This document shows, in pieces, positions 15,436 through 38,596 of a DNA stretch of 64,000 nucleotides. This DNA comes from Candidatus Omnitrophota bacterium (lineage in GTDB: Bacteria > Omnitrophota > Gorgyraeia > Duberdicusellales > 4484-171), in assembly GCA_021735655.1 (NCBI GenBank), contig JAIPGM010000004.1:1-64000 (forward strand), in the 5' to 3' direction. Position 1 is the first letter of the stretch. Each line of letters starts with the position of its first letter. The translations under genes and the position numbers were made by a program. The notes beneath the pieces were generated by a model. The model made no database searches. It had not been told where the DNA came from and saw nothing but the letters and a program-made list of their open reading frames with translations.

Positions 15436-15531
15436 AGATTAAATAAAAGGATTAATTAGTTTAAGCAAATATTAAACACCTAGGAGTGATTTTGTCAACA
15501 AAATAAAGAATAGCCATAATCGACAAAAAAC

Positions 15532-22344: not shown

Positions 22345-22502
22345 TGAGCCTCTCCTAAAATAATTAATAAACTATTATGAATACAAGGTAGGCAGTTTAA
22401 CGTCTTACCCGGGACATCTTAGAACAACCTTCTTTGCAATGCGTAACTGGACGCAGCATAAATTTGATTATAATATTCATATCTCACCTCCTCAATTATT
22501 AT

Positions 22503-23111
22503 CTAATTCCCAAAATGCTTCTTTAAATATTGTTCTAGAAGAGCCGTGGCTTCATCTTTACATTGACCACAGACTGTACCAAGTTTTGTTTTCTCTTGCA
22601 ACTCATAGTAGCTACGGGTACCTTCTAAAACAGCCTGTTCGATCTCAATGTCAGTAACATTCATACATTGACAGATAATCTTAGCTTTTTCTTTTTCGAT
22701 TTTATCAACCAATCCCTGGCGCTGATAGTAGTCACTGATTGCAGCTCTCAAAGCCTTATCGCCTAAAACCGAACAGTGTATTTTATGTTCCGGTAAACCG
22801 CCAAGTTCCTTAGCAATATCCTTAGGTGAAAGTTCAGAGGCCTGATCTAAAGTCATTCCCTTGGCCATCTCTGACAAAATTGAAGTTGAGGCAATAGCAC
22901 TAGCGCAGCCATAAGTCTTCCACTTACAATCAATAATTTTATTAGTTTCCTTGTCAACCTTAATGACCACAACCATCTGATCGCCACACTTTATGTTTCC
23001 GACTATGCCTTTGCCGTCTGCCTGATAAGCAGCTTCATCTTCTAAAACATTTTTAGGATTAGTAAAATGTGCCTTTAACTTCTCACTATATACCCATTCT
23101 GGATTAGTCAT
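22503..23111 (-). CDS. nifU: NifU-type Fe-S cluster assembly scaffold (IscU-like domain plus BFD-like 2Fe-2S domain)
   Basis: N-terminal IscU motifs (GCASAIAST, HCSVL) and a central CQCMNV...CGQC BFD-like Cys pattern. Length 202 aa. Confidence 0.85.
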   Translation of the reverse strand: MTNPEWVYSEKLKAHFTNPKNVLEDEAAYQADGKGIVGNIKCGDQMVVVIKVDKETNKIIDCKWKTYGCASAIASTSILSEMAKGMTLDQASELSPKDIAKELGGLPEHKIHCSVLGDKALRAAISDYYQRQGLVDKIEKEKAKIICQCMNVTDIEIEQAVLEGTRSYYELQEKTKLGTVCGQCKDEATALLEQYLKKHFGN

Positions 23112-24301
23112 TATTCATCACTTCCTTGATAAGCACTCGACATATCTCTTATCTTTTTTATTACTTTCGGAAGGACTTTAGCTACATATTCTATATCTTT
23201 AGCGCTCGTATCTCTTCCCAAACTAATTCGCACTGAACCATGAGCATATTCAGCTCCTAGGCCAGTTGCTAATAAAACATGTGACGGATCAAGCGAACCA
23301 GAAGCGCAGGCCGAACCAGTTGAAATAGCTATGCCCTCTAAATCAAGATAAAGCAAAATTGCCTCTCCTTCGGCACCAGCAAACGATACGTTTAAGGTAC
23401 CGGGAATGCAATCACTAGGATGACCATTAAAATAAATATCAGAAATATTCTTCTCTATTGCTTCTTTGAGAATTGCTTTTAATTTTAATAAACGCTCCTC
23501 TTCTGGCTTCATCTCTTTAGTCCGCATCTCTATCGCCTTAGCTAATCCGATTATTCCTAAAGTATTTTCAGTTCCGGCCCGGCGACCTCTTTCCTGATGG
23601 CCACCCCTGATTAAAGGACAAAAAGGAACCCCTCTTTTTACGTACAAAGCACCAATTCCTTTAGGCCCGTATATTTTATGTCCAGAAAGAGTTAAAAAAT
23701 CAACGTCTAACTCCTTTACATCTATTGGAATTTTTCCTACTGCCTGAACTGCATCAGTATGAAAAAGTGCCCCCCTAGAATGAGCTATTTTTGCAATCGT
23801 TTTAATATCTTGAATTGTACCAATTTCATTATTAGCCATCATCACTGAAACTAAACCAACCCTCTCACTAAGCATTTTCTCTAAACTTTCGAGATTGATT
23901 TTGCCTTGAGAGTTAACATCAAGATATAAAATTTTAGTACCTTTTTCTTCCAAGCATTTTGCTGTTTCTAATATACAAGGATGTTCGATGGCAGTTGTGA
24001 CGATCTCGGTACGACCACCACGTAAAGAAGTACAATGCGAAGAGGGGCAAGAAAAAATAGATAAAACTGTATTGTTAGCTTCTGAACCACTACCGACAAA
24101 TATAATCTCAGCGCTTTCAGCTCCAAGAAAAGAAGCAATACCTACTCTGGCTTCCTCAATCTGGCCACGAGCACGCCTGCCGGTTGCATGAAGACTTGAG
24201 GGATTACCAAAAAGCCCTAGCGACTCCCTTAAGGCCTTTTCAACTTGAGGATGCAAGGGGGTTGTTGCATTATGATCTAAATAAATATTCTGCCTAGCCA
24301 T
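23111..24301 (-). CDS. nifS: cysteine desulfurase
   Basis: Class V aminotransferase of 396 aa with PLP lysine SGHKIYGPKG and active-site SGSACASG. Confidence 0.9.
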   Translation of the reverse strand: MARQNIYLDHNATTPLHPQVEKALRESLGLFGNPSSLHATGRRARGQIEEARVGIASFLGAESAEIIFVGSGSEANNTVLSIFSCPSSHCTSLRGGRTEIVTTAIEHPCILETAKCLEEKGTKILYLDVNSQGKINLESLEKMLSERVGLVSVMMANNEIGTIQDIKTIAKIAHSRGALFHTDAVQAVGKIPIDVKELDVDFLTLSGHKIYGPKGIGALYVKRGVPFCPLIRGGHQERGRRAGTENTLGIIGLAKAIEMRTKEMKPEEERLLKLKAILKEAIEKNISDIYFNGHPSDCIPGTLNVSFAGAEGEAILLYLDLEGIAISTGSACASGSLDPSHVLLATGLGAEYAHGSVRISLGRDTSAKDIEYVAKVLPKVIKKIRDMSSAYQGSDE

Positions 24302-24363
24302 ATTTTCTCCTTAAACCTCGCTAAAGATTATACTATTAAATCGCCCGAATGAAAAGCAACACC

Positions 24364-27300
24364 TTATTTCTTAAGAATCTGCCTTTCCTTAAACCAACAG
24401 TACAACACTGGGACCAAAATAAGGTTAGAAAGGGTAGCAGTAATCAGACCGCCTACAGTTGGTGAAGCCATTGGCCTCATAACTTCTGAACCGGTTCCGG
24501 TTGCTAACATAACCGGCAAAAGAGCAATAATTGTAGTTGCTGTAGTCATCATTGCCGGACGAAGGCGCAAGAGTCCAGCCCGGATGACTGTCTTTCGTAT
24601 TTCTTCAATAGTTTTGGGGACCTTCTCTCTAAACAAATTATCTAAAGTTGAAAGTAATACTACCGCATTATCAGTAGCCACACCGAACAAAGCAATGAAC
24701 CCCACCCAAACTGCAGTAGATAATCTAAGATCTAAAAAATATAGCAATATAAGGCCACCCATCAAAGACACTGGCAAACCAGTTGAAAGAATAATTAATG
24801 AACTAAAGTTCTTAAAAGCAATGTAAAGGAGCAAGAGAATAACCGTTAAGGCTATAATCAATGAAGGTATTAATCTTTTTCTCGACTCCATCTCTGATTC
24901 AAATTGGCCAGACCAGGAGATAAAATATCCTGAAGGTAATTTAAGACCCCCACTGCCAATTTTTTCCTGAACTGCTTTCTGAGCATTTTTCACAAAATCG
25001 ATCAAGCCAACCTTCTCCTGATCAACATTAATAAAAACCCTTGCATACATCAAAGTATTTTCGGCACTGATAACTGCCGGGCCCAAGACTTTCTTTAACT
25101 TTGCCAGTTGGGCCAAAGGAATGTGGCCGCCGGAAGAAGTTGGGACAAATATCCTCTTTAAGGCCTCAGGGCTCTCCCTAAGTTCACGTAAGTACCTGAT
25201 TCTTACCGGGTAACGCTCTCGGCCTTCAACAGTAGTAGTTATATTCATTCCACCGATTGCAGTCATAATAACATGCTGGATATCGGAAACTTTTATGCCG
25301 TAGCGAGCGGCCTGTTGACGGTCGATTTCTATTTCAAAATATGGCCGACTTGATGCCCGCTCAGCATAAGGACTCACTGCTCCGGGAACTTGCGCCACAA
25401 TTTTTTCAACCTGTATGCCAATATTAACTATTTTTTCTAAATCTGACCCAAAAACCTTAACCCCTACCGGAGTTTGGATTCCGGTCGCTAGCATATCAAT
25501 TCTATTTCGTATCGGTTGGGTCATAATCGGACTCACCCCGGGCATGCGAGTTTTTTCCTGAATCTCCTGAATTAATTTTTGCCGAGTCATACCAACACGC
25601 CAATCTTTTTTATCCTTTAAATGAATAATTGTTTCAATCATCAAAACCGGAGCCGGATCAGTTGCCGTCTCAGCCCGGCCTAATTTTCCAACCACCCACT
25701 CTACTTCGGGAATATCGCTTTTAATAATAAAATCCTGCTTTCGCATTATCTCCATAACCTGAGTTAGAGACGCTCCCGGTAATAGTACCGGCATAAATAA
25801 AAGATCCCCTTCATTTAAGGGCGGCATAAACTCCTGTTTCATGAGCGATCCACAAATAAGCCCAACTACTATCACCAAAATAGAAATTAGCACTATTATT
25901 TTCTTATGCCTCAATGCCCAGCTAATAGTTGGTTTATAGACTTTGCTTAATGCTCGAGCAGTTCTGTTTTCTTCAACCGGACGTAACTTACCGCGCAAAA
26001 AGTAATAACAAAGCGTGGGCAAAAGCACCAAAGCAATAACTGCAGCTGCAGCCATAGCAAAAGTCTTAGTAAAGGCAAGCGGTCTAAAGAGCTTTCCAGC
26101 CTGGCCAGTTAAGACGAAAACCGGGACAAAACCAACTATTGTGGTAAGCAAAGCAAATAAAACCGGCTTACCTACTTCTTGGGATGCGCTAATACAAGTA
26201 TTCAGTCTTTCTGAAGAAGAGAGTTTAGAAACTTTGAGCTCCTCTCTTTTCTCAACAATTCTCCGGTAAATATTTTCAACTAAGACACATCCCGAATCAA
26301 CCATAACTCCGATAGCTATAGCAATACCACCCAAAGACATAATATTAGCATCAACTCCAAATTGACGCATAAGTATAAAAGAAATTAACACTCCTATCGG
26401 AAGAACAATCGAAATGACTATGCTGCCGCCCAAATGTAATAAAAATATAATAATTACAAAAATGGTAATCAGGACTTCTTGACTCAAGGCTGTCTTTAAA
26501 GTGTCGATCGCCCGCAAAATTAAACCGGTACGGTCATAAAAAGGAACTACTTTAACTCCCTCAGGTAAGCCCACTGACAACTCTTTTATTTTTGACTTGA
26601 TTAGCTGGATGACTTTCAATGGATTCTCCCCGTAGCGCATAAGAATTACGCCACCGGTTACTTCCTTTCCTTGCTTATCCAGAGCTCCTCTTCTAAAATC
26701 TGAACCGATAGTAACCTTAGCGATATTCTTTACATATATCGGTACACCCCCTCGGGAATCAATTACAATATCTTCAATATCTTCAGTATTCTTAATAAAG
26801 CCCAAGCCCCTAACCACAAACTCAACCCCACCCTCTTCAAACACCTTTGCCCCGACATCGATGTTTGACTTTTTAACTGCACTAATAACTTGATGCAGCT
26901 TAACCTGGTGAGAAAAAAGCTTATTCGGATCTATATCTATCTGATACTGCTTAACATATCCGCCGACTGAAGCAACTTCTGACACCCCTTCAACCGAAGT
27001 TAGCTGATAACGAACATACCAGTCTTGAATCGAACGAAGCTCGGCCAAATCATAACCATCACCTTCTACTGTATACCAAAATATCTGACCCAAAGCAGTT
27101 GCGTCGGGCCCTAAAGTTACTGAAGCGTCCTTGGGAATATTTTTTTTGGCAAAGTCGAGGCGTTCCAAAACTCTGGTTCTAGCCCAATAAAAATCAGTTC
27201 CGTCTTCAAAAATCATATTAACTAAACCAAAGCCAAAGGCTGAAGTAGAGCGCACCACCTTTACCTTAGGTACTCCCATTAAACCAGTAGTTAAAGGATA

Positions 27301-27498
27301 GATAACTTGATCTTCAACATCTTTAGGACTTCTGCCCGGCCAATCAGCATAAACTAATATTTGAAGCTCACCGATATCGGGTATGGCATCTACCGGAATT
27401 TCTTTCATCGAAGAATAACCCCAAACAATTAGCAAAATAAAGGTAGCTATTACCAAGAAGCGATTCTTGAGAGCAATTTCAATAATTTTATTAATCAT
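24364..27498 (-). CDS. cusA: heavy-metal efflux RND pump (CusA/CzcA family)
   Basis: 1044 aa with 12 TM helices and two large periplasmic loops, typical of HME-RND. Follows the adaptor and OMF genes. Confidence 0.9.
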   Translation of the reverse strand: MINKIIEIALKNRFLVIATFILLIVWGYSSMKEIPVDAIPDIGELQILVYADWPGRSPKDVEDQVIYPLTTGLMGVPKVKVVRSTSAFGFGLVNMIFEDGTDFYWARTRVLERLDFAKKNIPKDASVTLGPDATALGQIFWYTVEGDGYDLAELRSIQDWYVRYQLTSVEGVSEVASVGGYVKQYQIDIDPNKLFSHQVKLHQVISAVKKSNIDVGAKVFEEGGVEFVVRGLGFIKNTEDIEDIVIDSRGGVPIYVKNIAKVTIGSDFRRGALDKQGKEVTGGVILMRYGENPLKVIQLIKSKIKELSVGLPEGVKVVPFYDRTGLILRAIDTLKTALSQEVLITIFVIIIFLLHLGGSIVISIVLPIGVLISFILMRQFGVDANIMSLGGIAIAIGVMVDSGCVLVENIYRRIVEKREELKVSKLSSSERLNTCISASQEVGKPVLFALLTTIVGFVPVFVLTGQAGKLFRPLAFTKTFAMAAAAVIALVLLPTLCYYFLRGKLRPVEENRTARALSKVYKPTISWALRHKKIIVLISILVIVVGLICGSLMKQEFMPPLNEGDLLFMPVLLPGASLTQVMEIMRKQDFIIKSDIPEVEWVVGKLGRAETATDPAPVLMIETIIHLKDKKDWRVGMTRQKLIQEIQEKTRMPGVSPIMTQPIRNRIDMLATGIQTPVGVKVFGSDLEKIVNIGIQVEKIVAQVPGAVSPYAERASSRPYFEIEIDRQQAARYGIKVSDIQHVIMTAIGGMNITTTVEGRERYPVRIRYLRELRESPEALKRIFVPTSSGGHIPLAQLAKLKKVLGPAVISAENTLMYARVFINVDQEKVGLIDFVKNAQKAVQEKIGSGGLKLPSGYFISWSGQFESEMESRKRLIPSLIIALTVILLLLYIAFKNFSSLIILSTGLPVSLMGGLILLYFLDLRLSTAVWVGFIALFGVATDNAVVLLSTLDNLFREKVPKTIEEIRKTVIRAGLLRLRPAMMTTATTIIALLPVMLATGTGSEVMRPMASPTVGGLITATLSNLILVPVLYCWFKERQILKK

Positions 27499-27509
27499 AA
27501 CTTATTAAT

Positions 27510-28688
27510 TTAATGTTGATGCCCGGCTGGCATCGATTCATCTTCTCCCAAAGCTCCTCCATAAGCTGAAGCTGCTGCGCCTAGCTGTGATTGAGAATCA
27601 ATTAAAAAATTTCCTTTTAAAACTACTGACTCTCCTTTTTCAGCTCCGGAAACTAATGGATAGAAATCCATGGTCATACCGTCAAGAACCCCTTGAGCTA
27701 GTGGCCCAACAACTACCTCCCTTAGTTGAAAACGCCCCTGGTCCAAATCAACATAGATAACTTTTCTTCTTCCAGTATCTAAAACCGCATCCTTGGGGAT
27801 ACTTAAAACCGAACCAAGATCACTTCTAAGCCAAACATCCACATACATATTAGGTTTTAGAATATTCCCTTCATTAGCAACTAAAATTTTAAGCCGCTCA
27901 GTTCTGGTTTTTTCCTTTATCACCGGTTCAATACTTTTAACTTCGCCTTTTAAAACAAGACTTGGATCAGCTTGCAAAGTTATCTCGACCAAATCTCCTT
28001 TTTGAGGCCAAATAATTTCATATTCATAAAACTCTGCATAAACCCACATATACTCATCAGGTAAAATTAAACTTCGGTCGGAAACTCCGGCTACTTCAAG
28101 CTCCTTAATCAAATCCTGATCCAAACCCAAAAGCTCAAGTTTTATCTTAGTAGCTTCAACTACATCTTGAGCTCTTTCTTTAGCATCTTCAAACCCCGAC
28201 TCAGAAACCTTTTTATAAGTATTAAGCGCTTGTAAATACTCTTCTTCGGCAGTTCTTAACTGAGGGTCGTGAGCGACAATCCCTACAGTCCGCATCTCTT
28301 TATATAAAGGTACCACCTCGACTTTGAAAGTCTCTACCCCGGCCAATTTCAGTTCGGTAGGGTTTATGGTAACAATGTTAGTTTTTTCCTGAACCATTTC
28401 TAAATCCTTACTACCGATTAAAGTATTTTGAGGAGTTGAATATATCGGAGTTAAATCCATAAAGCAAATCGGGCATTTATTATTTCCTTTTTCAAACTCT
28501 TGAGGACTCACTCTAACCGAAGGATGCATGCCGCAGGTGTAGTACAATATTTTTCTCTCCGGAGTTGCCTCTTCTGACATTTTCATACCACTCATTTGAT
28601 GGCCTTTATGTTTATTCAGATAAAGAAAGGCAATACTGGCGCCAGCTGCCAAAATAACTATTATAATTATCAATATTAATTTTTTCAT
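27510..28688 (-). CDS. cusB: efflux RND periplasmic adaptor with N-terminal heavy-metal-binding domain
   Basis: YYTCGMHPSV and CPICFMDL N-terminal metal-binding motifs, plus the membrane-fusion-protein fold. Length 392 aa. Confidence 0.8.
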   Translation of the reverse strand: MKKLILIIIIVILAAGASIAFLYLNKHKGHQMSGMKMSEEATPERKILYYTCGMHPSVRVSPQEFEKGNNKCPICFMDLTPIYSTPQNTLIGSKDLEMVQEKTNIVTINPTELKLAGVETFKVEVVPLYKEMRTVGIVAHDPQLRTAEEEYLQALNTYKKVSESGFEDAKERAQDVVEATKIKLELLGLDQDLIKELEVAGVSDRSLILPDEYMWVYAEFYEYEIIWPQKGDLVEITLQADPSLVLKGEVKSIEPVIKEKTRTERLKILVANEGNILKPNMYVDVWLRSDLGSVLSIPKDAVLDTGRRKVIYVDLDQGRFQLREVVVGPLAQGVLDGMTMDFYPLVSGAEKGESVVLKGNFLIDSQSQLGAAASAYGGALGEDESMPAGHQH

Positions 28689-28698
28689 TCCTTACCTC

Positions 28699-29964
28699 CT
28701 AAAGATCCTCCCCAATAATATACTCAATTTGAGCAACTGTCTTCATGTAATCTACAGTTTGTTTTAACTCGGCGATTTTTATAGAAATTACGCTTCTTTC
28801 AGCATCAAGAAAACTCAAAAAATCAACCACTCCATCTTCATAGCCAATACGTGATACCGAAAAATTATGCATGCTCTCAGGCAAGATTACATTCTTATAC
28901 AAATCAATAAGTTGCTCTTCAGTCTCCAGCCTAAAGTGTAAGTCCTCTATCTTGAATGATAAAAAGTTTTCCTTATCTTCAACTTGATACTCTTGAGCTT
29001 CTAGCTTTGCTTTTTCAGAACTAATCTCTGAACGTACTTTCCAAAACCACAAAGGAACTTTTACCTGAAAGCCAATCATCCAGGCATCCTGGCCGTCATT
29101 TTCAAGATTAGTGGTTCCGCCGCCGATATCGATATACTCAGCCATAATTCCGAAATCAGGAATATAGCCTTGCTTGGCTAAAGAAAACTTATCCTTTTGT
29201 TTCTCAAGCATTAAAAGATCAATGATTATATGAGGGCTTTCAGCATAAGCTTTATCTAATAACTCATTTTTATCGATGTTGACTCTCTGAGCCAGTAGCC
29301 TAAAACCTAAAGGAAGCTTAATATAACTATTTTGGGGCCGGTTCAAGATACGATTAATTTGAGCTCGAAGAAGGTTTTTTTGCTTGTTTAATTTCAAAAT
29401 TTTGTCTTCGATCTTAGCAATTTCTAAATCAACTTTCACCAAATCCTGCTGCGGGGCGGAGAGGGTTTCGTATTTACTCTTTATACTACTGCGAATACCT
29501 TCCAAGATCAACTTTTCAGCTTCCATGATGTGGACGGATTCAACGACGAAAAAATAATCATAAAAATAAGACTTCAAATTTTCTATAACCCCCCTTACCT
29601 CTAAAATATAACGGGCATAGGCCACTGCAGCCTCTTTCTGGGCTATGTCGCCTTTAAGCCAAAGTTTACCAGGATAAGGTATCGCTTGTTTTATGCTGTA
29701 TTTTCTCTTCATCGGACCAGCTTTAGTTTCGACTGACTCGCCCCAAAAACCAAAACCAACTTCCGGCTGAGGCAGGCTTCTCTCAGCGGTAATCCTGGCC
29801 TTCTTGGACTCCCATTCTTTATTTAAAGCCCTCAACTTAAGATTATTAACTAAAGCCTCATCAAGCAATAATTCTAAAGTGTCTCTCGTTTTATCTTGAG
29901 CAAAAACTGTCATCCTCAAGACAAAAACAAACATCAAAGAAACTACAAGCAATTTTTTCGTCAT
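28699..29964 (-). CDS. cusC: TolC-family outer membrane efflux protein
   Basis: Signal peptide followed by two OEP repeats. Length 421 aa. First gene of the CBA efflux triad. Confidence 0.8.
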   Translation of the reverse strand: MTKKLLVVSLMFVFVLRMTVFAQDKTRDTLELLLDEALVNNLKLRALNKEWESKKARITAERSLPQPEVGFGFWGESVETKAGPMKRKYSIKQAIPYPGKLWLKGDIAQKEAAVAYARYILEVRGVIENLKSYFYDYFFVVESVHIMEAEKLILEGIRSSIKSKYETLSAPQQDLVKVDLEIAKIEDKILKLNKQKNLLRAQINRILNRPQNSYIKLPLGFRLLAQRVNIDKNELLDKAYAESPHIIIDLLMLEKQKDKFSLAKQGYIPDFGIMAEYIDIGGGTTNLENDGQDAWMIGFQVKVPLWFWKVRSEISSEKAKLEAQEYQVEDKENFLSFKIEDLHFRLETEEQLIDLYKNVILPESMHNFSVSRIGYEDGVVDFLSFLDAERSVISIKIAELKQTVDYMKTVAQIEYIIGEDL

Positions 29965-30242
29965 AGCTTATTCAATCTTTTTATTATACTGATTATCTCA
30001 CTTATTTTTTGTTGCTTATCCTTTTCCGATCTGCCGCTCAGGGCATCGACTACGCAATGCTCCATATGCTTAGAAAGTATCTTTTCAGCAACTCTGCGTA
30101 GGGCGCCGATTGAAGCATATACTTGAGTAGCAATATCAATACAATACTTCTTATCGTCAATCATTTTCTGGATACCTTTAACTTGGCCTTCAATTCGTTT
30201 CAAAGCAATTAAATTCTCTTGGTGAGTTGTCTTGTGGGGCAT
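29961..30242 (-). CDS. csoR: CsoR/RcnR family metal-sensing repressor (Cu(I)-type C-H-C site)
   Basis: 93 aa with a C-x24-H-x3-C ligand arrangement (KYC...SKHMEHC), matching CsoR W-X-Y-Z positions. Confidence 0.75.
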   Translation of the reverse strand: MPHKTTHQENLIALKRIEGQVKGIQKMIDDKKYCIDIATQVYASIGALRRVAEKILSKHMEHCVVDALSGRSEKDKQQKISEIISIIKRLNKL

Positions 30243-30247
30243 ATTAC

Positions 30248-30970
30248 CTACCTCCTGTTTAATTTTATCCTATCTAGAATGGGATTGAAACAATTGGCTA
30301 GAAATAGTGAGCCGATAAAGAAATCATAGCCAGGGAATAGCTTGAAAATAAGAAAAGAAAAAATGCCGGCTAAGCTTCCAAAAATGAACCCTCGTAGAGC
30401 TCCGAAACCCGAGGTCTTAGGCTCAATAAGCATAATAAACAAAAAGAAAAAACTCAAAATACTAAAAGGATTTACTCTTTCGAGAACGAAAAGAGATAAA
30501 AAGAAAACTAAGAACCCTAAAATATGCGGGATTTTCTTAAAAACATAAGCCAGATAAATCCCCACAACTATAATTAAAAAAATGTTAGCTTCGATATGCC
30601 AGGTAAGCGGCAATCGAAAAAGAACGGCTAAAAAAAGAGCGAAATTAGCTGGATTAAATAGGTGTTTTTTTCTAAATCTTAAAAGGTGTTTAGAAACAAT
30701 GGCTAGTAAAGAAAAAATAACTAGTATATAAAAAGCCTGATGATAATCCAAAACTCCTGAAACAATAAATCCGGTAATTAGGGCGCTTTTGACTGAAACC
30801 CTGCGCCTAGAAAATACTTTATTTATATAATAATCAGCCAGACTGGCGCTAACCAGTCCACCTAGAACCCAAAACAGAAAGCGCAATCCCTCTTGAACGG
30901 CCATCATTAACGATAGCGCGCTCAAAAGGACGATTACGATATTTTTCTTGTCTTTTAAAAATTTTCTCAT
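30248..30970 (-). CDS. hypothetical polytopic membrane protein (6-8 TM, several His; FNPA motif reminiscent of the RnfD/NqrB family)
   Basis: Hydrophobic 240 aa ORF embedded in the copper operon. Contains [11 protein letters not shown]. No firm family assignment. Confidence 0.35.
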
Positions 30971-31524
30971 TCTTTAACTATTAACTTAGCCTTCATGCTA
31001 TGATGGCCTCTTCCGCAATAAACTGAACAGAGAATCGGAAATTCCCCTGCTTCTTTAGCAATAAACTCTATTTTTCTAGTTTCCCCTTTTTTAACTGTGA
31101 CGTTTATATTGTATTCCTTAATATAGACTCCATGAGGTACATCCCGGGAACTAGCCAGAATTCTTACTATGTCACCTTTTTCTACAACGATCTCCTCTGG
31201 CTCAAAACCAAACTGATAGGCTTCTAATTCAAACTCTTTAATTTTAGAGATATACTTCTCAGGATCCTTCTTAAATTCATCGACGCAGGAAGGGCAACAA
31301 AAATAATAAGTTTTTCCCTGATGAGTGTATGAATATTCTTTGCTAGCCTCTCCTCCCATAACCGGGCAAATTCCTAAATTGTCTTCGGATCTAACTGCCT
31401 TTTCATCCGTCATCTGCTTATTGGTATGATTATCCATGTCGTGGTGATGATGATCCATGTCTTGAGCATAACCCAAACTCAGATTCAAAAAAATAATTAA
31501 ACCAAACAAAACTACTCTTTTCAT
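30967..31524 (-). CDS. secreted His-rich YHS-domain / CuA-type cupredoxin fusion protein
   Basis: Signal peptide, then a His tract [15 protein letters not shown] motif CPVMGG...[11 protein letters not shown]...DPEKY. C-terminal HGVY...(38 aa)...[12 protein letters not shown], which matches the COX2/N2OR CuA motif H...CxxxCGxxHxxM. Confidence 0.65.
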
Positions 31525-31565
31525 CGCCCAGCCTCCTTTTCTAAATTATACCAGACTTTTTATCC

Positions 31566-32261
31566 CTACTCTACTATTTCAACCTCAAACTCAACATTTA
31601 TTGTTGAATATACCGGGTCGTTGCTCTTAATTGTGACCGACCTTGCCATATGGCCTAATTTAACATGGGGGTGGTCTAAATCGGTTACAATGATCAACTT
31701 TCCTTCTTCGGCAGGCGCAAGATCAGCTTTCCAACTACTTTTTAAATTCTCCATATTCATTGAAAAAGCCGGACTCTCGCTTTTTTTCGTCTTTAGCCTG
31801 ACTGTCGTGCACCCGCAGCTAGTCTTAAGTTCATTAATGGTCAGCGCCGTATTGCCTTTATTCTTTACCTTGACCGCTAACTCTAATTTACCCTTACTCT
31901 TACTGACCTTTCCTAAATCGTATGCCAAAGGCTTAATAAAAATCTCTGGCCGCTTTGCTCCGGCTTCCTCTATTAGCTTTTTCTCGACCACCTTTTTAGT
32001 TTTAAAGTCGATTATGCTATCAAGAGAATATTTTTTAGCTATTTTTAGCATAATCTCCTCTTCCCCCAGGCCAGCCTCTAAAAAGGCGTCTATGTAAGCT
32101 TTCATCTCTTTAGCGTGAGCACAAGTGCAGGAAATAAAAGATTTGCCGCACTTGCAACATTCCAATTTAGAATAAATGTCTTCTTTGGCCCCGGCAAAAA
32201 CAGTACTGCTAAAAAACGCAACCAGTAAAACAAAAACAATAACTTTTAATTTTTTACTCAT
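31566..32261 (-). CDS. secreted Cys-rich protein with C-terminal DUF1573 domain
   Basis: Signal peptide. Cys cluster ECCKCGKSFISCTCAH. The DUF1573 hallmark motif (TSCGCTT) lies mid-protein in LAVKVKNKGNTALTINELKTSCGCTTV, with about 80 residues following it. Confidence 0.6.
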   Translation of the reverse strand: MSKKLKVIVFVLLVAFFSSTVFAGAKEDIYSKLECCKCGKSFISCTCAHAKEMKAYIDAFLEAGLGEEEIMLKIAKKYSLDSIIDFKTKKVVEKKLIEEAGAKRPEIFIKPLAYDLGKVSKSKGKLELAVKVKNKGNTALTINELKTSCGCTTVRLKTKKSESPAFSMNMENLKSSWKADLAPAEEGKLIIVTDLDHPHVKLGHMARSVTIKSNDPVYSTINVEFEVEIVE

Positions 32262-33378
32262 CGTTCTCTCCTCCTTCTACCGGATAGCCGGCATCTTCCC
32301 AGGCGCCAAAGCCATCCTCAAAAACCTTGATTCTTCCCGGCTTAAAACCATTCTTGATCAAAATTCTTCCGGCACTCATACTGGCATCGCACTTTCCTCC
32401 GTCCCAGGTACCTTCACAATAAAAAACCACCTCTTTATCAGGTGATATTTTATCAAGATTGTATTCTAAATCTGAAAGCGGAATACCCAGAGCGTCTTTA
32501 ACATGCCCGGCCGAATAATCATCCTTATTTCTAACATCAACCCAAATAATATCCTTAAACAATAAAAAGTAATGTTCGTAAGCTTCCTCTAGGTGGACTA
32601 TGGCCGGTTCTTGGCTAGCCGGTAACTTTGGCCCGCGAATTAAAGGATAACCTTTTTTCTCCCAAAAAGAGATACCGTCTAAGTTGTAAGCGTTGTAACC
32701 CTTCTGCCGCAGCTTCTTGGTTATGTAACTGCTTCTATGGCCGGCTCCGCAATAAGAAACTAGAGGTGTTTCTTTGTCGATGTCCTGAAGTTTAGCTAAA
32801 ACATTCTCATCATTGCGGTCGAACCTGCTTTTAGGAAACCATACGGCCTCGGGGATGTGCCGTTCAATATATTCATTCTCTTCCCTTACGTCTAAAATAA
32901 CTATTTTTTGTTCCTTCCCTAACCGTTCATAGAGCTCAGTTGAGCTAAGGCTGGGTATCTTGGAAATGTTTTTCTGGCCAAAGGATGCCTTAGGCCCAAT
33001 CTCAGCTGAAATACTAAATTTTAACTTGGGCTGGGAGAGATCATTAGAAACAAGGTAGATATATTTCTCGTCTTTGCCGGGCTGCTTGCCTTGAGGATTG
33101 TAAATTACTTTTAATTCTGCCTTAACTCCGGCTGGTATTCGGTTAGAAGAAATCTCAGCAGTAGTACAACCGCAGGTAGTATAGACTTTCTCAATAACCA
33201 GATCCTCATCCCCGACATTCTCTACCGTAAAAATCTTCTCTTTTCTCTGGCTTTCCTCTATCTTGCCAAAATCCCAGTAATTTGAATCAACCCTAATATT
33301 GGGGCCGGATTTTCCGGCGGCTTCTTGGCTGAAAAATAAAGAAAAAAACAATAATAAATAAAGCAATTTTTTCATCAA
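32254..33378 (-). CDS. secreted DUF1573 domain + tandem rhodanese-domain protein (putative sulfurtransferase)
   Basis: Signal peptide, then N-terminal DUF1573 (VYTTCGCTT). First rhodanese has the active loop YCGAGHRSS. A second rhodanese-like domain carries YCEGTWDGGKCDASMSAGR. Length 374 aa. Confidence 0.65.
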   Translation of the reverse strand: MMKKLLYLLLFFSLFFSQEAAGKSGPNIRVDSNYWDFGKIEESQRKEKIFTVENVGDEDLVIEKVYTTCGCTTAEISSNRIPAGVKAELKVIYNPQGKQPGKDEKYIYLVSNDLSQPKLKFSISAEIGPKASFGQKNISKIPSLSSTELYERLGKEQKIVILDVREENEYIERHIPEAVWFPKSRFDRNDENVLAKLQDIDKETPLVSYCGAGHRSSYITKKLRQKGYNAYNLDGISFWEKKGYPLIRGPKLPASQEPAIVHLEEAYEHYFLLFKDIIWVDVRNKDDYSAGHVKDALGIPLSDLEYNLDKISPDKEVVFYCEGTWDGGKCDASMSAGRILIKNGFKPGRIKVFEDGFGAWEDAGYPVEGGENDE

Positions 33379-33617
33379 TCAGCTTCCTTTTTCTGCTTTC
33401 CTTCATGACAGCTCTTAGGAACTTTTCCGCTGCCTTTGGCAATCCAGTTTAAGAATCCATCAGTGGGCTTTCTCCTAAGATAATCTCCAATATTCTCCTG
33501 GAAAGTAGCTTTGCAGGCTTGACAATCAAAATAATAAGTTTTTCCCTGATGAGAAAAAAAATATTCCGTATTTTTACTCACCCTTACTCCGCATACGGGA
33601 TCCCGTTTTTTAAACAT
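33375..33617 (-). CDS. YHS-domain protein
   Basis: DPVCGV...GKTYYFDCQACKATF, a canonical YHS/TRASH motif. Length 80 aa. Immediately downstream of copA. Confidence 0.7.
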   Translation of the reverse strand: MFKKRDPVCGVRVSKNTEYFFSHQGKTYYFDCQACKATFQENIGDYLRRKPTDGFLNWIAKGSGKVPKSCHEGKQKKEAD

Positions 33618-33630
33618 TTTTAACCTCCAA

Positions 33631-36111
33631 TTATATTGCCCGCTTGTACCTTCGCATCAACAAAGAATTAGATACTACGCTGACCGAACTAAAGGCCATG
33701 GCTGCGCCGGCAATCATCGGGTTCAATAAAAACCCAAATATTGGATAAAGTATACCGGCAGCAACCGGTATACCGGCAGCATTATAAAAGAAAGCCCAGA
33801 AAAGATTCTGTTTTATCTTCTTCATCGCATAATGCGATAAATCCATAGCCATAACCACATCGCGCAGGTCATCCTTAATCAATACTATGTCGCCGGATTC
33901 AATAGCTACATCGGTTCCGCTGCCGATAGCCAACCCAATATCAGCCTGAGTTAAAGCCGGGGCATCATTTATACCGTCGCCGACCATAGCTACTTTTAAA
34001 CCTTCAGCCTGAAGCTTCTTGACTTCATTAGCTTTATCTTTAGGCAGGACTTCGGCTAAAACCCGCTTAATACCCAGTTGTTTGGCTATGGCTTGGCCGG
34101 TGCGTTTGTTATCGCCGGTAATCATAATCACCTGTTTTTTCATCTGTTTCAATTTAGCCACTGCCGCTTTAGAAAATTCCTTCAAAGTATCGGCTACGGC
34201 GATAATTCCGATTAGCTTATCGGCAGCAGCTACCAGCATAGCGGTTTTCCCTTCGTTCTCTAATTTTTCTAAATCTTTTTCTGCTTTTAAAATATCGATA
34301 TTCTCTTCCTCCATAAACTTTCGATTACCCAGTAAAACTCTTACTCCCTCTACCCGGGCCAATACGCCTTTGCCGGTGATTGAGTTAAAATCAGTGATTG
34401 CTTTTAATTCTATAGCCTTATCTTTGGCTCCTTTTACAATTGCTTCAGCCAGAGGATGCTCAGAACTTTTCTCCACCGACGCCGCTAAACACAATACTTC
34501 ACTATCAGCTTTATCATAAGCTACCACATCTGTAATTTGCGGTTCTCCCTTGGTAAGTGTACCGGTCTTATCAAAAACTATTGCTTGAATTTGATGGGCT
34601 AGCTGAAGGCTTTCGGCACTCTTGATCAATATGCCGTTTTCTGCCCCTAAACCGGTCCCGACCATTACGGCAGTCGGGGTAGCTAAGCCCAAAGCACAGG
34701 GACAGGCAATAATTAAAACGGCAATGAAAATAGTTAAAGCAAAAACAAACCCCTGGCCAACAGCCAGCCAGATAATAAAAGCTAAGATAGCAATTCCTAC
34801 TACTGCCGGCACAAAATAGGCTGATATCTTATCGGCTAATTCCTGAATTGGCGCCTTAGACCCCTGGGCTTCTTCGACCAATCTGATGATCTGAGCCAAA
34901 GCCGTATCTTTGCCGACTTTGGTAGCTTTAAACTTAAAACTACCGGTTTTATTTATGGTAGCTCCGATAACCTGGCTGCCTTTAGATTTTTCAACCGGGA
35001 TACTTTCTCCGCTGATCATTGACTCATCCACGCTGGAATAGCCGTCTGTTACTTGGCCGTCAACCGGAATTTTTGCTCCCGGCCTGACTATGACAATATC
35101 GCCGGCTATTACTTCTTCTACCGAAACCTCCTGCTCCTTACCGTTACGTAAAACCAGGGCTTTTTTCGCTTGAAGGCCCATGAGTTTTTTTATCGCCTCA
35201 GAAGTTTTACCTTTAGCGATTGATTCTAAAAACTTACCTAACAAGATAAAAGCAATCAAGAATCCAGCAATCTCATAATAAAGATTTTTCATATCAAAAG
35301 CAGATGAGCCCGACCAGATCACTATCGAAACATATAAACTATAAAGGTAAGCTGCTCCCACACCTAAAGCCACCAAAGTATCCATGTTCGCAGTATGGGT
35401 TTTAATCACTGCCGAAAAACCTCGAGTAAAAAACTGATAGCCGGCAAACATAATCGGAGTAGCCAGGAGAAACTGAATCAAAGCCATATTATTTACCATC
35501 CAGGAAGCAAGAGGCAGTTTTAACCCCGAACTCATCGCAAAATACATCAGCGGCGCAGCCAGAATAATCGAAACTATAAACTTAAGTTTAAGAATTCTTA
35601 TCTCCCTTTCTCGAGTTTCTTTTTCTAAATCCGGGGTGGCTTTTTCTTGCTCAATCGGCTCATAGCCAGCGGCTTTAATTACGGCTTTAATCTTCTCGGC
35701 AGAAAGAATAGCCGGATCAAATTTAATCTTTGCCCGCTGGTTCACCAATAACTCTTTGCTGGTTATCCCCTTAAGGCTGTTTAGGGCTCCCTCTACCGTG
35801 CTAAGGCAATGAGGGTTGTCCATACCGATAACTTTAAGCTCTAACAGGCCTGCGGTTTTCTTATTGCCGGCTACCTTGTAGCCGGTTTTCTCTATAGCCT
35901 TATGCAAAACCTCCAAATTAACTTTACCGGAATCATAGTCAACATAAGCCTTTTCGCTGGCAAAATTAACCCTGGCTTGTTTTACTCCCGGAGTTTTTTT
36001 CAAGGCACCTTCAATAGTTGCCACACAGCTCGCACAGTGCATACCGCTTATACTGATAACCGTCTTACTTAAACCAGACATAGATTTACCCTCTCCTTTC
36101 GTTATCCGCAA
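33631..36111 (-). CDS. copA: copper-translocating P1B-type ATPase with two N-terminal HMA domains
   Basis: Two HMA CxxC motifs ([15 protein letters not shown]). TM CPC motif ([11 protein letters not shown]). DKTGT phosphorylation site and GDGINDAP. Length 826 aa. Confidence 0.95.
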
Positions 36112-36140
36112 CCCCCTGACTGTTCTTTTCCGAGATACTC

Positions 36141-36533
36141 TTAATGATGAGCCTCATGTCCGGAAGGCATTTCTTTTTCACTGTTTTTTCTGCCCTGGCC
36201 GGCATCATCTTTACCCATCATCGGACAACTTTTCATCATTTCTTTCATCATTTGCCGCATTCCTTCGCTATCGATGCTTAGCTCAACCTCTTTCACCAAA
36301 TTTAACTTTTTATCATATTTAACAAGCTTATTGCCTAAAAGCAACACTACCCCTCCATCTTCAGTGGCCACTAATTGTTTTTTAACCATCATCTGCATCA
36401 TACCTTTTCCCATCATACTCTTGCTCATCATACCTTTATCCATCATCTCTGAAGAATGTTCTTCAGCAAAAACAGAAAAGTTAACAACAACCAACAGCAA
36501 ACTACCTAAAACAATACCGGTAAACCGCTTCAT
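36141..36533 (-). CDS. secreted methionine-rich putative Cu(I)-binding protein
   Basis: Signal peptide, multiple MxxM/MM motifs ([20 protein letters not shown]; [14 protein letters not shown]) and a C-terminal HEAHH. Resembles PcoE/SilE/CusF-type Met-rich sites. Confidence 0.55.
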
Positions 36534-36534
36534 C

Positions 36535-36723
36535 TTACGCCTCCTTTTTTAATCCGGGAATAAAAGCCGGAACCCGTTTTCTGTACTCCAGAAATTCCCA
36601 GTCGAACTGCTTCTCGACTTCTTTTTCCTCTCTCATCGCTAACTTGTAGTAAACCGACACAAGAACCGGCCACATCCCGTATGCATAACTGTCTAAACCT
36701 TCTCCAGGCATATTTATCTTCAT
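36535..36723 (-). pseudogene. remnant (C-terminal about 60 aa) of an ICMT/CzcN-like isoprenylcysteine carboxyl methyltransferase family gene
   Basis: The 62 aa ORF ...REEKEVEKQFDWEFLEYRKRVPAFIP matches the conserved C-terminus (EE..L...FG.eY.eY...VP.fIP) of the ICMT/PEMT family, to which CzcN belongs. It is preceded immediately by an in-frame TAA. There is no N-terminal TM/catalytic region. A second ORF in another frame (36530-36748) overlaps it. Confidence 0.45.
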
Positions 36724-36784
36724 TTATAATTATGCCTAGTCTAGGCAAGACTGTAAATTAGACCTTAGCCCAATAGCCAACTCT

Positions 36785-36814
36785 ATGATACCACACCCCC
36801 CTATGGTATGTCAA
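36785..36814 (-). promoter_or_regulatory. sigma70-like promoter with CsoR-type operator at the head of the copper operon
   Basis: On the minus strand: TTGACA (36809-36814), an 18-nt spacer, TATCAT (36785-36790). The inverted repeat ATACCA-CACCCCCCTA-TGGTAT (36788-36809) fills the spacer. A G/C tract flanked by ATACC/GGTAT resembles known CsoR operators. Confidence 0.5.
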
Positions 36815-36870
36815 GATGATATTAAAATATTTTCCGCTCATAACTCCTTGAGAATAAGGGTCTTACAAGC

Positions 36871-37461
36871 TTAATCCTTAGTAACCAAAAAAATAGCGTT
36901 TAAAGCGAAAAGGTTGGGGAAAAACTTTACTAACTTCCTTTTGCCAAGATAAAAGGCACTAGAAACCTTTATCTGTTTTTCAACACAGAAGTCTTTAAAG
37001 TCATTAATGCTCAAAAAATGAACATTGGGTGTATCATGCCAATGGTAAGGTAAAGAAGCGGTTATCGGAACTTTTCCTCTAAAGAAAATTCTAAAGCGGG
37101 CCGGAAAATAGGTAAAATTGGGAAAGCCAACAATTACTTCTTTGCCAATCCTCAAAGATTCAGTCACTACGTAGTCGACTTTTTTAATTTCTTGCATACT
37201 TTGATTCAATATCACATAATCAAAAGCTTTAGCCGGATATCCAGAAAGCCCTGTTTCAATGTCGCCATGGAATACACTTAAATCCTTCTCAACACAATTA
37301 TAAATACCTCTCTCATCCAGCTCAATGCCTTGTGCTTTTACTTTCTTTTCTTTGACTAAAAAATGCAAAAGATCTCCATTGCCGCAGCCAAGATCAAGCA
37401 CCTTAGCTCCGGGTTTAACAATCTTATAGATTATCCTATGGTCCAAACGTATCTTATCCAT
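36871..37461 (-). CDS. metW: methionine biosynthesis protein MetW (methyltransferase-fold partner of MetX)
   Basis: LDLGCGNG motif. Length 196 aa. Sits immediately downstream of metX with overlapping stop and start. Confidence 0.75.
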
Positions 37462-38596
37462 TTTTCACCAAATCATAGGTCTTTCTCAAAAAATTCTTAA
37501 CCAAACGGGTCTGTTCGTCAACCTCCAGCAAAAAAGCATCGTGGCCATAGGTTGACTCTATTTCACAATAAGTAACATCAACTTGTCGAGTTTTAAGCTG
37601 CTGAATTATCTCTCTAGACTGATAAGGCGGATAGAGCCAGTCTGACTTAAAGGCAATAACTAAGAAGCGAGTATCAATTTTGTTACTCTTCGCCACTAAT
37701 TTCCCTTCTGACAAATCAAGATAGTCCATAGCCTTAGTGATATAAAGGTAGCTGTTAGCATCAAAGCGCTTTACAAAGCTATCTCCTTGATATCTCAAAT
37801 ATCCTTCAACTTCAAAGTCAGTCTTAAAACTAAAGCTATAGTTTTTTTCTTTAAGTTTACGGGAAAACTTCTTCTCCATCGACTCATCGCTCATATAAGT
37901 TATATGACCGATCATCCTAGCAACAGACAAACCCCTCTGAGGCTGAGATTTTCCGTAGTAATTACCCTCAAGCCAATCTGGGTCAGCCATTACCGCCTGC
38001 CTCCCAACCTCATCGAAAGCTATTTGCTGAGGAGAATGCTTTAAGGCCGTAGCTATAGGAATTGCCGATGAGATGACTTCCGGATAAGAAGCTGCCCATT
38101 GTAAGACTTGCATACCACCCATTGATCCGCCAGTAACACAAAGTATCTTCTTAATGCCTAAATAATCTATAAGTCTCTTCTGAGCCGCGACCATATCAGC
38201 AATGGTAATTATCGGAAAATCAATACCATAAGGTTTATTGGTCTTAGGGCTAGTTGAAGAAGGCCCGGTTGAGCCTTTACAGCCACCAAGAACATTAGAG
38301 CAAATTATGAAATACTTATCGGTATCAAAAGCTTTGCCCGGGCCAATCATTATATCCCACCAGCCGGGTTTTTCGTCTCCTTGATGAAAACCAGCCGCAT
38401 GAGCATCACCGCTTAAAGCATGGGCAACTAGAACGGCATTGGTTTTAGCTGAATTTAATTCCCCATAAGTTTCATAGCAAAGAGTAATCGGGCCTAGCTC
38501 TCCCCCATTAGCTAGCTTAAGCTGATCAGACTGATCAGCAAAAGTAAAACTCTGCGGTTCAATAATTCCTAAGCTATTTTTAGCATTTTTGCTCAT
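37454..38596 (-). CDS. metX: homoserine O-acetyltransferase
   Basis: Alpha/beta hydrolase of 380 aa with nucleophile GGSMGG. Typical MetX N-terminus and metXW pairing. Confidence 0.9.

Follow-up and report, generated by a model that had tools for sequence, protein, structure and literature searches.

We analysed a 64-kb stretch of DNA (64,000 nucleotides; positions 1 to 64,000 of contig JAIPGM010000004.1 in assembly GCA_021735655.1) from an uncultivated Candidatus Omnitrophota bacterium. Within this stretch, which we call the window, 12 tightly packed open reading frames (ORFs) on the minus strand, at 24364-36814, include genes for a copper-type P-type ATPase (CopA), a repressor of the CsoR family and a CusCBA-type exporter, together with several accessory proteins. 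We consider it likely that this cluster is an operon for Cu(I) detoxification and export. Eleven of the ORFs are intact and one is a remnant of 62 amino acids (aa); we number them g1 to g12 in the direction of transcription. A preliminary description of this DNA reported a single-strand cluster across the same interval, as we also find, but counted thirteen genes where we count 12 ORFs. It described the genes as overlapping or nearly so, and the gaps between neighbors do range from only -8 to +41 nt, with overlaps at five junctions. The largest gap is the 41-nt spacer between g6 and g7. The cluster is flanked by metX-metW upstream and by nifS-nifU downstream. Its features, in the direction of transcription, are as follows.

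36785..36814, minus strand: sigma-70-type promoter (TTGACA, 18-nt spacer, TG-extended TATCAT; 11 of 12 matches)
36788..36809, minus strand: CsoR-type operator ATACCATAGGGGGGTGTGGTAT, a pseudopalindrome with a G-tract, in the spacer of the promoter (-35 to -10)
36535..36723, minus strand: g1, 62-aa ORF, possibly the C-terminal remnant of an ICMT/PEMT-family (CzcN-like) methyltransferase (weak LmtA match)
36141..36533, minus strand: g2, secreted Met-rich protein (130 aa, 19 of them Met; C-terminal HEAHH; signal peptide by inspection)
33631..36111, minus strand: g3, CopA, P1B-1 Cu(I)/Ag(I)-exporting ATPase (TIGR01511; Pfam HMA and E1-E2 ATPase)
33375..33617, minus strand: g4, 80-aa YHS/TRASH protein (Pfam YHS, PF04945, 44.0 bits, cut-off 30.3); no signal peptide
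32254..33378, minus strand: g5, secreted protein of 374 aa with DUF1573 (CGC motif) and two rhodanese domains (Pfam)
31566..32261, minus strand: g6, secreted protein of 231 aa with a CcmH-like domain and DUF1573 (CxC) (Pfam DUF1573; profile search)
30967..31524, minus strand: g7, secreted protein of 185 aa with a His-rich stretch, a YHS domain and a CuA-type cupredoxin domain (Pfam YHS, Cupredoxin_1/COX2)
30248..30970, minus strand: g8, 240-aa membrane protein with an RnfD/NqrB fold (AlphaFold2 model, Foldseek); 4-nt overlap with g7
29961..30242, minus strand: g9, CsoR, predicted Cu(I)-sensing repressor (PF02583, Trns_repr_metal, 89.6 bits, cut-off 22.8)
28699..29964, minus strand: g10, outer-membrane factor, CusC-like (Pfam OEP, two stretches, 118 bits); 4-nt overlap with csoR
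27510..28688, minus strand: g11, periplasmic adaptor, CusB-like (Pfam HlyD_D23, 76 bits; weak HMBD match)
24364..27498, minus strand: g12, CusA-type heavy-metal RND pump (ACR_tran; TIGR00914, CusA-CzcA, 1027 bits, cut-off 701)

The domain calls for g3-g7 and g9-g12 are supported by Pfam and NCBIfam searches. Sequence records MCF7908074.1 and MCF7908075.1 name g7 as 'YHS domain-containing protein' and g8 as 'hypothetical protein'. GC skew is negative over the whole window, and an Rfam search of the window found no tRNA and no other RNA family.

Genes for copper export and sensing

The preliminary description had combined CopA and CusCBA export with a CsoR sensor, and each of these core elements passed a test at the sequence level. 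The ATPase g3 scores 637 bits against TIGR01511 (cut-off 397) and carries CPC at position 470, DKTGT at 514, YN at 776 and MAFSS at 805. Together, CPC, YN, MxxSS and DKTGT form the signature of P1B-1 Cu(I)/Ag(I) ATPases. There are also two HMA stretches in g3, the first with CASC at residue 26 and the second with a motif that, by inspection, is degenerate (HCLST). An alternative start codon for g3 is the ATG at 36081.

The nearest solved relatives of g9 are the copper-sensing CsoR proteins 4M1P (E = 2e-18) and 4ADZ (E = 7e-18). The Cys of its YCIDI segment and the H-x3-C of its HMEHC segment align with the C-H-C Cu(I) ligands of both structures. By its fold, its ligand set and the type of its operator, g9 is predicted to be a Cu(I)-responsive CsoR. 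The pump g12 scores 863 bits against E. coli CusA but only 575 bits against ZneA, a pump for divalent cations, and it has Met at all three positions that align with CusA residues M573, M623 and M672. The N-terminus of the adaptor g11 contains a His/Met tract and an HMBD-like motif, CGMHP...CPIC. Pfam and NCBIfam scans found no CusF, no CopZ-type HMA chaperone and no multicopper oxidase among the 12 ORFs.

Promoter and operator

The promoter at 36814..36785 is the highest-ranking promoter-like site in a scan of the interval 22-38 kb, and the operator ATACCATAGGGGGGTGTGGTAT lies inside it, at the 5' end of the cluster. The operator occurs once in the 64 kb. For a pattern written from the operator itself, about 0.2 occurrences would be expected by chance, and the real test is therefore its conservation in relatives. 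Known CsoR operators are G-tract pseudopalindromes built on TAC-N9-GTA (PMC3902906). The site in the window reads TAC-N9-GTG followed by TGGTA, with one mismatch (GTG) to this rule.

We compared the window with related loci from metagenomes and genomes, to which we gave L-numbers (homologous proteins have P-numbers). The window promoter is orthologous to the promoter located 5' of g7 in L089, where the operator is identical except for GTA in place of GTG, and so is an exact fit to TAC-N9-GTA. A conserved promoter/operator arrangement occurs at five other Omnitrophota loci that contain csoR. In the regions that we read directly, TTGACA-TACC..GGGGGTA..GTAT is present at the promoters of L002, L003/L004, L086 and L089, and in L087 a CsoR-type site is placed after the -10 hexamer. 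A strict TACC-N8-14-GGTA scan of the related loci returned nothing beyond the window's own site. The promoter and CsoR operator that the preliminary description had placed at the 5' end of the cluster are thus borne out, and we infer from the sequence that g1-g12 form a single copper-induced operon.

Two further features were seen in L002, which is part of a complete Omnitrophota genome (CP070807). A run of N, at about 9788-9885, lies just upstream of its conserved promoter/operator, and the position of g8 is occupied by a gene for a DoxX/MauE-type membrane protein.

Conservation and history of the cluster

The locus L089 comes from a close relative, with 91% identity to the window in metX, 87% in metW, 92% in the RND pump, 84% in nifS and 86% in nifU. 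Its gene order is metY-cysK-metX-metW, then g7-g8-csoR-OEP-MFP-RND, then nifS-nifU, with the same promoter and operator but with no g1-g6. Another locus, L093, has metX-metW-g7-g8-csoR-OEP in the same order up to the end of its contig. In L092, two genes lie between g7-g12 and nifS: the first codes for a stand-alone DUF1573 protein and the second is g6-like. These two additional genes are only 41-50% identical to the copies in the window, compared to 72-87% for the pump genes, so the DUF1573/CcmH-like pair of L092 was recruited independently, to the other end of the operon. In more distant lineages (L086, L087 and L009/L137) the same gene set is found in different orders, and in Omnitrophota the pairs g7-g8 and g5-g6 are repeatedly neighbors of CsoR, Cus and CopA genes. 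A check on conservation of the neighborhood, which the preliminary description had proposed, therefore has a positive outcome: the set of genes is shared with other Omnitrophota contigs, in shuffled order.

Base composition also differs along the cluster. The g1-g6 block, which is 5.2 kb long, has a GC content of 0.419, as against 0.388 for g7-g12 and 0.380 for the whole window. At third codon positions (GC3) the five longer ORFs of the block have values of 0.41-0.52, with the maximum of the cluster in g1 (0.52), and g4 (80 codons) has 0.33. The GC3 range is 0.30-0.38 for g7-g12, and 0.26-0.38 for g7-g12 taken together with the flanking genes.

The cluster had been called an island in the preliminary description. 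This name may suit g1-g6, which are absent from the L089 site and mostly have higher GC3, but it does not seem to suit g7-g12, which occupy the same metW/nifS site in L089. We regard g7-g8-csoR-cusCBA as an older six-gene module at the metW/nifS site, which looks native or vertically inherited. The simplest reading is that the 5.2-kb copA-containing block was inserted between the operator and g7, although the block may instead have been lost from L089. We scanned the 12 ORFs and four genes of the flanks for mobility domains and found none. No direct repeat of at least 11 nt flanks the g1-g6 block.

A secreted YHS-cupredoxin and its membrane partner

The g7 protein begins with a signal peptide (by inspection), which is followed by a His-rich stretch, a YHS domain (PF04945, 42.7 bits, cut-off 30.3) and a cupredoxin domain. 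Over its whole length the latter can be aligned with the soluble CuA domain of Thermus ba3 oxidase (2CUA; E = 5e-15), every ligand being matched, and its nearest NCBIfam matches are the CuA domains of NosZ and CoxB. Across 40 homologs of g7, four cysteines of the YHS domain (C53, C76, C77 and C80) and the CuA residues H131, C166, C170, H174 and M177 are invariant. The family is large, with more than 200 clusters that come mostly from Omnitrophota, and some from Elusimicrobiota. No gene for a heme-copper oxidase subunit I or for the catalytic propeller of NosZ was found in the window's cluster or in the related loci that we read.

The neighboring gene g8 had been described simply as coding for a membrane protein. 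It does, and its fold can be specified further. An AlphaFold model built from 40 sequences (predicted local distance difference test, pLDDT, 87) had RnfD or NqrB as all of its top 14 matches in the Protein Data Bank (PDB) in a Foldseek search, with TMq values of 0.65-0.76 and a probability of 1.00. In a profile alignment g8 retains the N-terminal helices, an FNPA-type motif and a C-terminal DPxTS-like motif (EPKTS). The match to Pfam PF03116 covers only the N-terminal 114 residues and, at 26.4 bits, is below the cut-off of 27.7. In the middle of the protein, 53 profile positions stand opposite 136 residues of RnfD, so that about 80 residues, including the loop that carries the covalent flavin mononucleotide (FMN), are absent. 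There is no [ST]GA[ST] flavinylation motif in g8, and no other Rnf or Nqr subunit in the window or the related loci, where the constant neighbor of g8 is g7. The fold therefore places g8 with RnfD/NqrB, while the Pfam score, the flavin loop and the partner subunits all speak against membership. We rejected the possibility that g8 is a true flavoprotein RnfD, in view of the missing flavin loop and flavinylation motif.

To quantify the association between g7 and g8 we used a metagenome scan anchored on g8, taking loci with a close g8 homolog (at least 45% identity) and enough upstream sequence. Of these 45 loci, which are partly non-independent, 42 have a g7 homolog immediately 5' of g8 and in the same orientation, and three have CopA at that position. 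Those g7-g8 pairs that have long flanks adjoin csoR-OEP-MFP-RND or CopA. Between the window and L089, identity is 68% for g7 and 72% for g8, compared to 84-92% for the housekeeping flanks and the pump; the pair is less conserved than its neighbors and therefore evolves faster.

In three loci of one lineage the g8 homolog appears as two tblastn pieces only a few bases apart, with 56% and then 41% identity (L009 14131-14795, L137 10001-10665 and L138 150-814). The gene may be frameshifted or a pseudogene in this lineage, or the assembly may be in error.

A pair of secreted DUF1573 proteins

The genes g5 and g6 had been described as a rhodanese gene and a DUF1573 gene, respectively. Both assignments stand, but each protein has a second, N-terminal domain that had been overlooked: DUF1573 in g5 and a CcmH-like domain in g6. 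The DUF1573 domain of g5 (PF07610, OS_HP2-like, with an Ig fold) scores 75.9 bits (cut-off 26.1) and is followed by two PF00581 stretches. Four cysteines of g5 are invariant in 22 homologs: C69, in the CGC/CC motif of DUF1573, and C210, C321 and C330. The first rhodanese domain has a canonical CGAGHRS loop, with invariant C210 and R215, and the second has an atypical C321...C330 loop. The g5 family is small and almost wholly confined to Omnitrophota.

In g6, the DUF1573 domain scores 43 bits (cut-off 26.1). The invariant cysteines are C35, C38, C45 and C47 in the N-terminal domain (C-x2-C...C-x-C) and C149 and C151 in the CxC motif of DUF1573. When a 32-sequence profile of the N-terminal domain was searched against the PDB, the only significant matches were to CcmH (2KW0, E = 2.6e-6; 2HL7, E = 1.3e-5), and in these the redox CxxC (CPxC) of g6 aligns with that of CcmH. 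Neither one sequence alone (Pfam E = 0.011) nor a profile of 8 sequences, searched against the PDB, gave a significant likeness. We call g6 CcmH-like, and not an ortholog of CcmH, because its score against Pfam CcmH (PF03918) is 15.5 bits, under the cut-off of 25, and because there are no ccm genes near it. The two-domain architecture of g6 is found in about 90 clusters at 50% identity. A fold search with a shallow model of g6 (pLDDT 74) returned only Ig-like sandwiches of a generic kind; PCuAC copper chaperones were present, as were many other proteins, at a TMq of about 0.3, and we did not count these matches as evidence for a chaperone function. Some other DUF1573 proteins are predicted selenoproteins with UGC at the CxC motif (PMC9312934), which suggests that the first cysteine of the DUF1573 motif is reactive.

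The two genes are frequently linked. They are adjacent in L006, L007 and L009-L011 and form a single protein in L086 (P0136); the L008 protein (P0137) joins g5 to the DUF1573 portion of g6. Of nine loci with close g5-g6 pairs, eight have copper-type genes no more than 10 kb away, and only L006 does not. A radical-SAM gene coding for about 410 aa directly follows the g5-g6 pair in L006 (11843-13096) and the g5-g6 fusion in L086 (11973-13202); there is none in the window.

Small genes at the 5' end

The first ORF had been described as a remnant of CzcN. That description rests on one family match, to LmtA in NCBIfam (E = 9e-4; 19 bits, cut-off 325, over 40 residues), and on a C-terminal motif that, by reading, resembles CzcN-like methyltransferases. 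There is no Pfam match, even at E = 10. The N-terminal part of such a protein cannot be present, because g1 is merely 147 nt from metW, and we think that g1 is probably the C-terminal fragment of a CzcN-like methyltransferase.

The next gene, g2, has no Pfam or NCBIfam family match and no homolog in the related loci. It contains three tandem copies of a 15-nt unit (36396-36446) that encode MMxKG/S pentapeptides, and so seems to have expanded by short tandem duplication. Its composition suggests that it is probably a periplasmic Cu(I) binder. The stop codon of g4 overlaps the start of g5 by 4 nt. In L086, CopA has a YHS domain fused at its N-terminus, and we predict that g4 is probably a cytoplasmic Cu(I) partner of CopA. 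The YHS fusions in L086 are at 15460-16515, where the partner is a pyridine-nucleotide-disulfide oxidoreductase, and at 17597-20215, where it is the N-terminus of CopA. For copper handling, this lineage seems to favor the YHS domain.

A proposed copper export system

Together these observations point, with a good though not overwhelming degree of confidence, to a CsoR-controlled Cu(I) detoxification and export operon, and the cluster probably handles silver as well. Under this model, binding of Cu(I) would free the operator from CsoR and the whole cluster would be transcribed, giving negative autoregulation. CopA would pump cytoplasmic Cu(I) to the periplasm, probably supplied by the small cytoplasmic YHS protein g4, and CusCBA would then export periplasmic Cu(I) across the outer membrane. 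In the periplasm, copper would be bound by the Met-rich protein g2 and the YHS-CuA cupredoxin g7. Together with g8 in the membrane, g7 would most likely act in a manner similar to CusF or CopI, buffering periplasmic copper and handing it to the pump. In known systems, CusF accepts copper from CopA and delivers it to CusB, and the chaperone CupA is itself a cupredoxin (PMC7558416). Copper tolerance can depend on the periplasmic cupredoxin CopI, which protects cytochrome c assembly, a target of copper in the periplasm (PMC4600104).

The products of g5 and g6 would form one cysteine-based periplasmic unit, whose most likely task would be to protect or repair envelope thiols against Cu(I)–for example, those needed in cytochrome c maturation–or else to move sulfane sulfur. 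This role would be analogous to that of the copper-induced Scs/Dsb systems. Scs thiol oxidoreductases are induced by copper, and Scs ties copper to the redox homeostasis of the envelope (PMC10907172). The block comprising the remnant, the Met-rich protein gene, copA, the YHS gene, g5 and g6 would be a later addition to the operon. The roles suggested for the accessory genes g5-g8 are the weakest part of the model.

Several observations weigh against the model or against parts of it. The organism is known solely from metagenomes. The outer-membrane factor g10 has no specific match in NCBIfam and falls below the equivalog cut-offs, and the CusB/CzcB matches of g11 are partial, limited to its C-terminal half and far under their cut-offs. 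An obvious Met/Cys/His path for metal is absent from g8. CuA centers are classically sites of electron transfer, and not chaperones. There are also distant subfamilies of g8 (L144-L171, 32-37% identity) that mostly have neither g7 nor copper genes as neighbors, and of g5 (L012-L017 and L088, 36-43% identity, with a CCGY motif) that mostly have no copper neighbors, so the association with copper is limited to the close subfamilies of g8 and g5. At the 3' end of the cluster we saw no terminator between g12 and nifS.

Alternative interpretations

The cluster might consist of two or more independently transcribed units (g1-g6 and g7-g12) that were joined by insertion, with the CsoR operator directly governing only the first. 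We regard this as unlikely but as a possibility to be taken seriously. The 41-nt spacer between g6 and g7 contains a perfect -10 element with a TG extension, TGGTATAAT (31553-31545, minus strand), about 20 nt before the start codon of g7. This element is a possible internal promoter, from which g7-g12 may also be transcribed on their own, and the two parts of the cluster differ in GC3 and in history. Nor does the shared direction of the 12 ORFs prove anything: nearly all ORFs of at least 200 aa within 235-49741, about 40 consecutive genes over 49 kb, are on the minus strand, so the strand of g1-g12 is uninformative, and the strand bias is a property of this replicon arm and not of the copper cluster. 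Against separate units, however, our scan found no -35 partner for TGGTATAAT, and a transcript starting from it would have a leader of only about 14 nt. A scan of 22000-38000 for terminator-like sites found 27 (compared to 13.6 +/- 4.0 in shuffled sequences), mostly intragenic and on either strand, but none of them lies between cluster genes, and so none separates g6 from g7. The window's single operator is at the 5' end whereas csoR is in the 3' half, and in relatives the operator directly drives g7-g12; loss of this control would leave the pump and sensor genes unregulated.

It is also conceivable, as a decidedly speculative variant, that g7 and g8 form a previously unrecognized redox system in which the secreted CuA protein is wired to a flavin-less membrane protein of the RnfD fold, and that the pair alters the redox state of periplasmic copper via the membrane quinone pool. 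Such a system would be an oxygen-independent substitute for multicopper oxidases or cupric reductases, and would operate together with a dedicated cysteine relay of DUF1573, CcmH-like and rhodanese domains that protects envelope thiols against Cu(I). We think it quite improbable that g5, g6 and perhaps g8 are mere passengers with a job unrelated to copper, such as sulfur transfer, disulfide chemistry or cytochrome c maturation. CcmH and rhodanese do have well-known roles outside copper metabolism, the pair in L006 has fatty-acid oxidation and radical-SAM genes beside it instead of copper genes, and the distant g5 and g8 subfamilies lack copper neighbors. But L006 is the only one of the nine close g5-g6 loci of this kind, the window and L092 have acquired non-orthologous DUF1573/CcmH-like pairs at opposite ends of the same operon, and no ccm genes are near the cluster. 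In the window, moreover, g5 and g6 come after the operator and before csoR, and their stop and start codons overlap.

It is very unlikely, in our view, that the cluster serves instead to supply copper to g7 as a maturing CuA cuproprotein, with CopA acting like the CcoI/CopA2-type ATPases and g8 as the redox partner in a small respiratory module. This idea draws on the complete and invariant CuA ligand set of g7, which is typical of electron-transfer sites, on its closest NCBIfam matches (the NosZ and CoxB CuA domains), and on the fold of g8, which is that of a respiratory-complex subunit. It does not agree with the logic of CsoR, which turns genes on under copper excess, or with the presence of a CusA-type pump with a methionine triad, which is an exporter. 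Genes for an oxidase subunit I, a NosZ propeller or further Rnf/Nqr subunits are also missing from the loci that we read, and g8 has no flavin site. The last alternative, that the regulator is a CstR-like persulfide sensor and that the system answers to reactive sulfur species and not to copper, is one to which we give almost no credence. CstR, a member of the CsoR family, controls a rhodanese-containing operon in Staphylococcus, and g5 carries two rhodanese domains. Persulfide-sensing CstR proteins, however, lack the His of the Cu(I) C-H-C site, which g9 keeps. The best solved relatives of g9 are copper CsoRs, its operator is of the CsoR G-tract type, and the genes for CopA and CusCBA are among those regulated. 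L089, which has no rhodanese at all, keeps this sensor and operator. We rejected persulfide sensing because g9 has the His ligand, because its operator is of the CsoR type and because there are relatives that lack rhodanese.

Comparison with known copper systems

The core of the cluster resembles the Cue/Cus system of E. coli (copA and cusCFBA): both have a P1B-1 CopA with CPC, YN and MxxSS, both have a pump with the methionines M573, M623 and M672 of CusA, and copper would follow the same two-step route, from cytoplasm to periplasm and from there to the outside. The window differs in having both pumps in one cluster under CsoR, whereas E. coli uses CueR and CusRS, and in having five extra genes between the pumps. 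It has neither CusF nor a CueO-type oxidase, and its adaptor has an HMBD-like N-terminus. CusF is part of the E. coli layout but is not essential to the pump family.

The regulatory part is closer to the CsoR-copZA systems of Bacillus, Mycobacterium and Streptomyces, with which it shares a C-H-C CsoR, a TAC-N9-GTA G-tract operator that overlaps the promoter, and CopA as a target. In the window, csoR is the ninth gene and not the first, a YHS protein is found instead of an HMA-type CopZ, and the regulon includes an RND pump and periplasmic proteins, as suits a diderm.

By its cupredoxin fold, and by being encoded together with copper-export genes, g7 is comparable to CopI of Rubrivivax and CupA of Streptococcus pneumoniae. 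The likeness is one of fold, and g7 differs from both in its complete COX2-type CuA ligand set, its four-Cys YHS domain and its dedicated membrane partner. We take CupA to face the cytoplasm, and CopI presumably has a type-1 site. CopI is a periplasmic, copper-induced, His/Met-rich protein that works without oxygen (PMC4600104). CupA holds a binuclear copper cluster, and CopI has been described as plastocyanin-like (PMC7558416). With the CuA domains of Thermus thermophilus ba3 oxidase (2CUA) and NosZ, g7 shares the conserved ligand pattern H, C-x3-C-x3-H-x2-M. Unlike them, it is a secreted soluble protein with no transmembrane anchor, fused to a YHS domain and a His-rich tail and placed under a copper repressor, and no g7 locus that we read contains a subunit I or a NosZ catalytic domain. 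The partner g8 resembles RnfD/NqrB in fold and in its FNPA-type and EPKTS motifs, and differs in being about 80 residues shorter, without the FMN loop.

Like ScsABCD, DsbC and CcmH, the g5 and g6 proteins are secreted, have predicted reactive cysteines and are encoded together with copper resistance genes, and the CxxC of g6 aligns with CcmH. They do not have a thioredoxin fold; their cysteines are in a CcmH-like helical domain, in the Ig-like DUF1573 and in rhodanese loops. The cluster also lacks an electron importer of the DsbD/ScsB type.

Significance of the accessory genes

A CsoR-regulated copper export operon is a well-known kind of system, and in this respect the core of the cluster is ordinary. 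The preliminary description had stated that the overall architecture corresponds to no described layout, and our full-text literature search likewise found no description of it; in the literature that we searched, the placing of both pump types behind one operator and the conserved g7-g8/g5-g6 set are undescribed. Most knowledge of copper handling in the periplasm comes from CueO, PcoA, CusF, CopI and Scs of Proteobacteria that are aerobic or facultative. Full-text searches retrieved no work that joins a YHS domain with a cupredoxin, and YHS is not mentioned in a 2020 review of bacterial copper homeostasis (PMC7558416). Searches for DUF1573 together with copper gave no account of copper handling (judged mostly by title), and PMC9312934, a review of selenoproteins, lists DUF1573 only as a predicted selenoprotein family with a UGC motif.

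The g7-g8 and g5-g6 pairs are found in a large uncultivated phylum, Omnitrophota, with homologs also in metagenome-assembled genomes of Elusimicrobiota, and both pairs are repeatedly under CsoR control beside CopA and CusCBA. If g5-g8 do act on copper, they would be new determinants of copper tolerance in the periplasm, and would give a functional context to DUF1573, YHS-cupredoxins and short RnfD-like proteins, three large families of unknown function. These accessory modules are specific, conserved and experimentally tractable leads on how copper is handled outside the cytoplasm. The locus would also illustrate how a metal operon can grow: a further module is inserted behind an operator that is already in place and ahead of the first gene under its control.

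Other genes at related loci

In L086, a P-II gene is located between small YHS genes and copA. Some YHS or copper loci also show a link with glycogen phosphorylase. ORFs coding for about 610 aa with an N-terminal YHS-like segment occur in L009 (8845-10668), L011 (3084-4928) and L003 (6800-9277), and the DNA of the one in L009 resembles alpha-glucan phosphorylase. In L003/L004, a glycogen phosphorylase gene lies one gene 5' of the g7 homolog.

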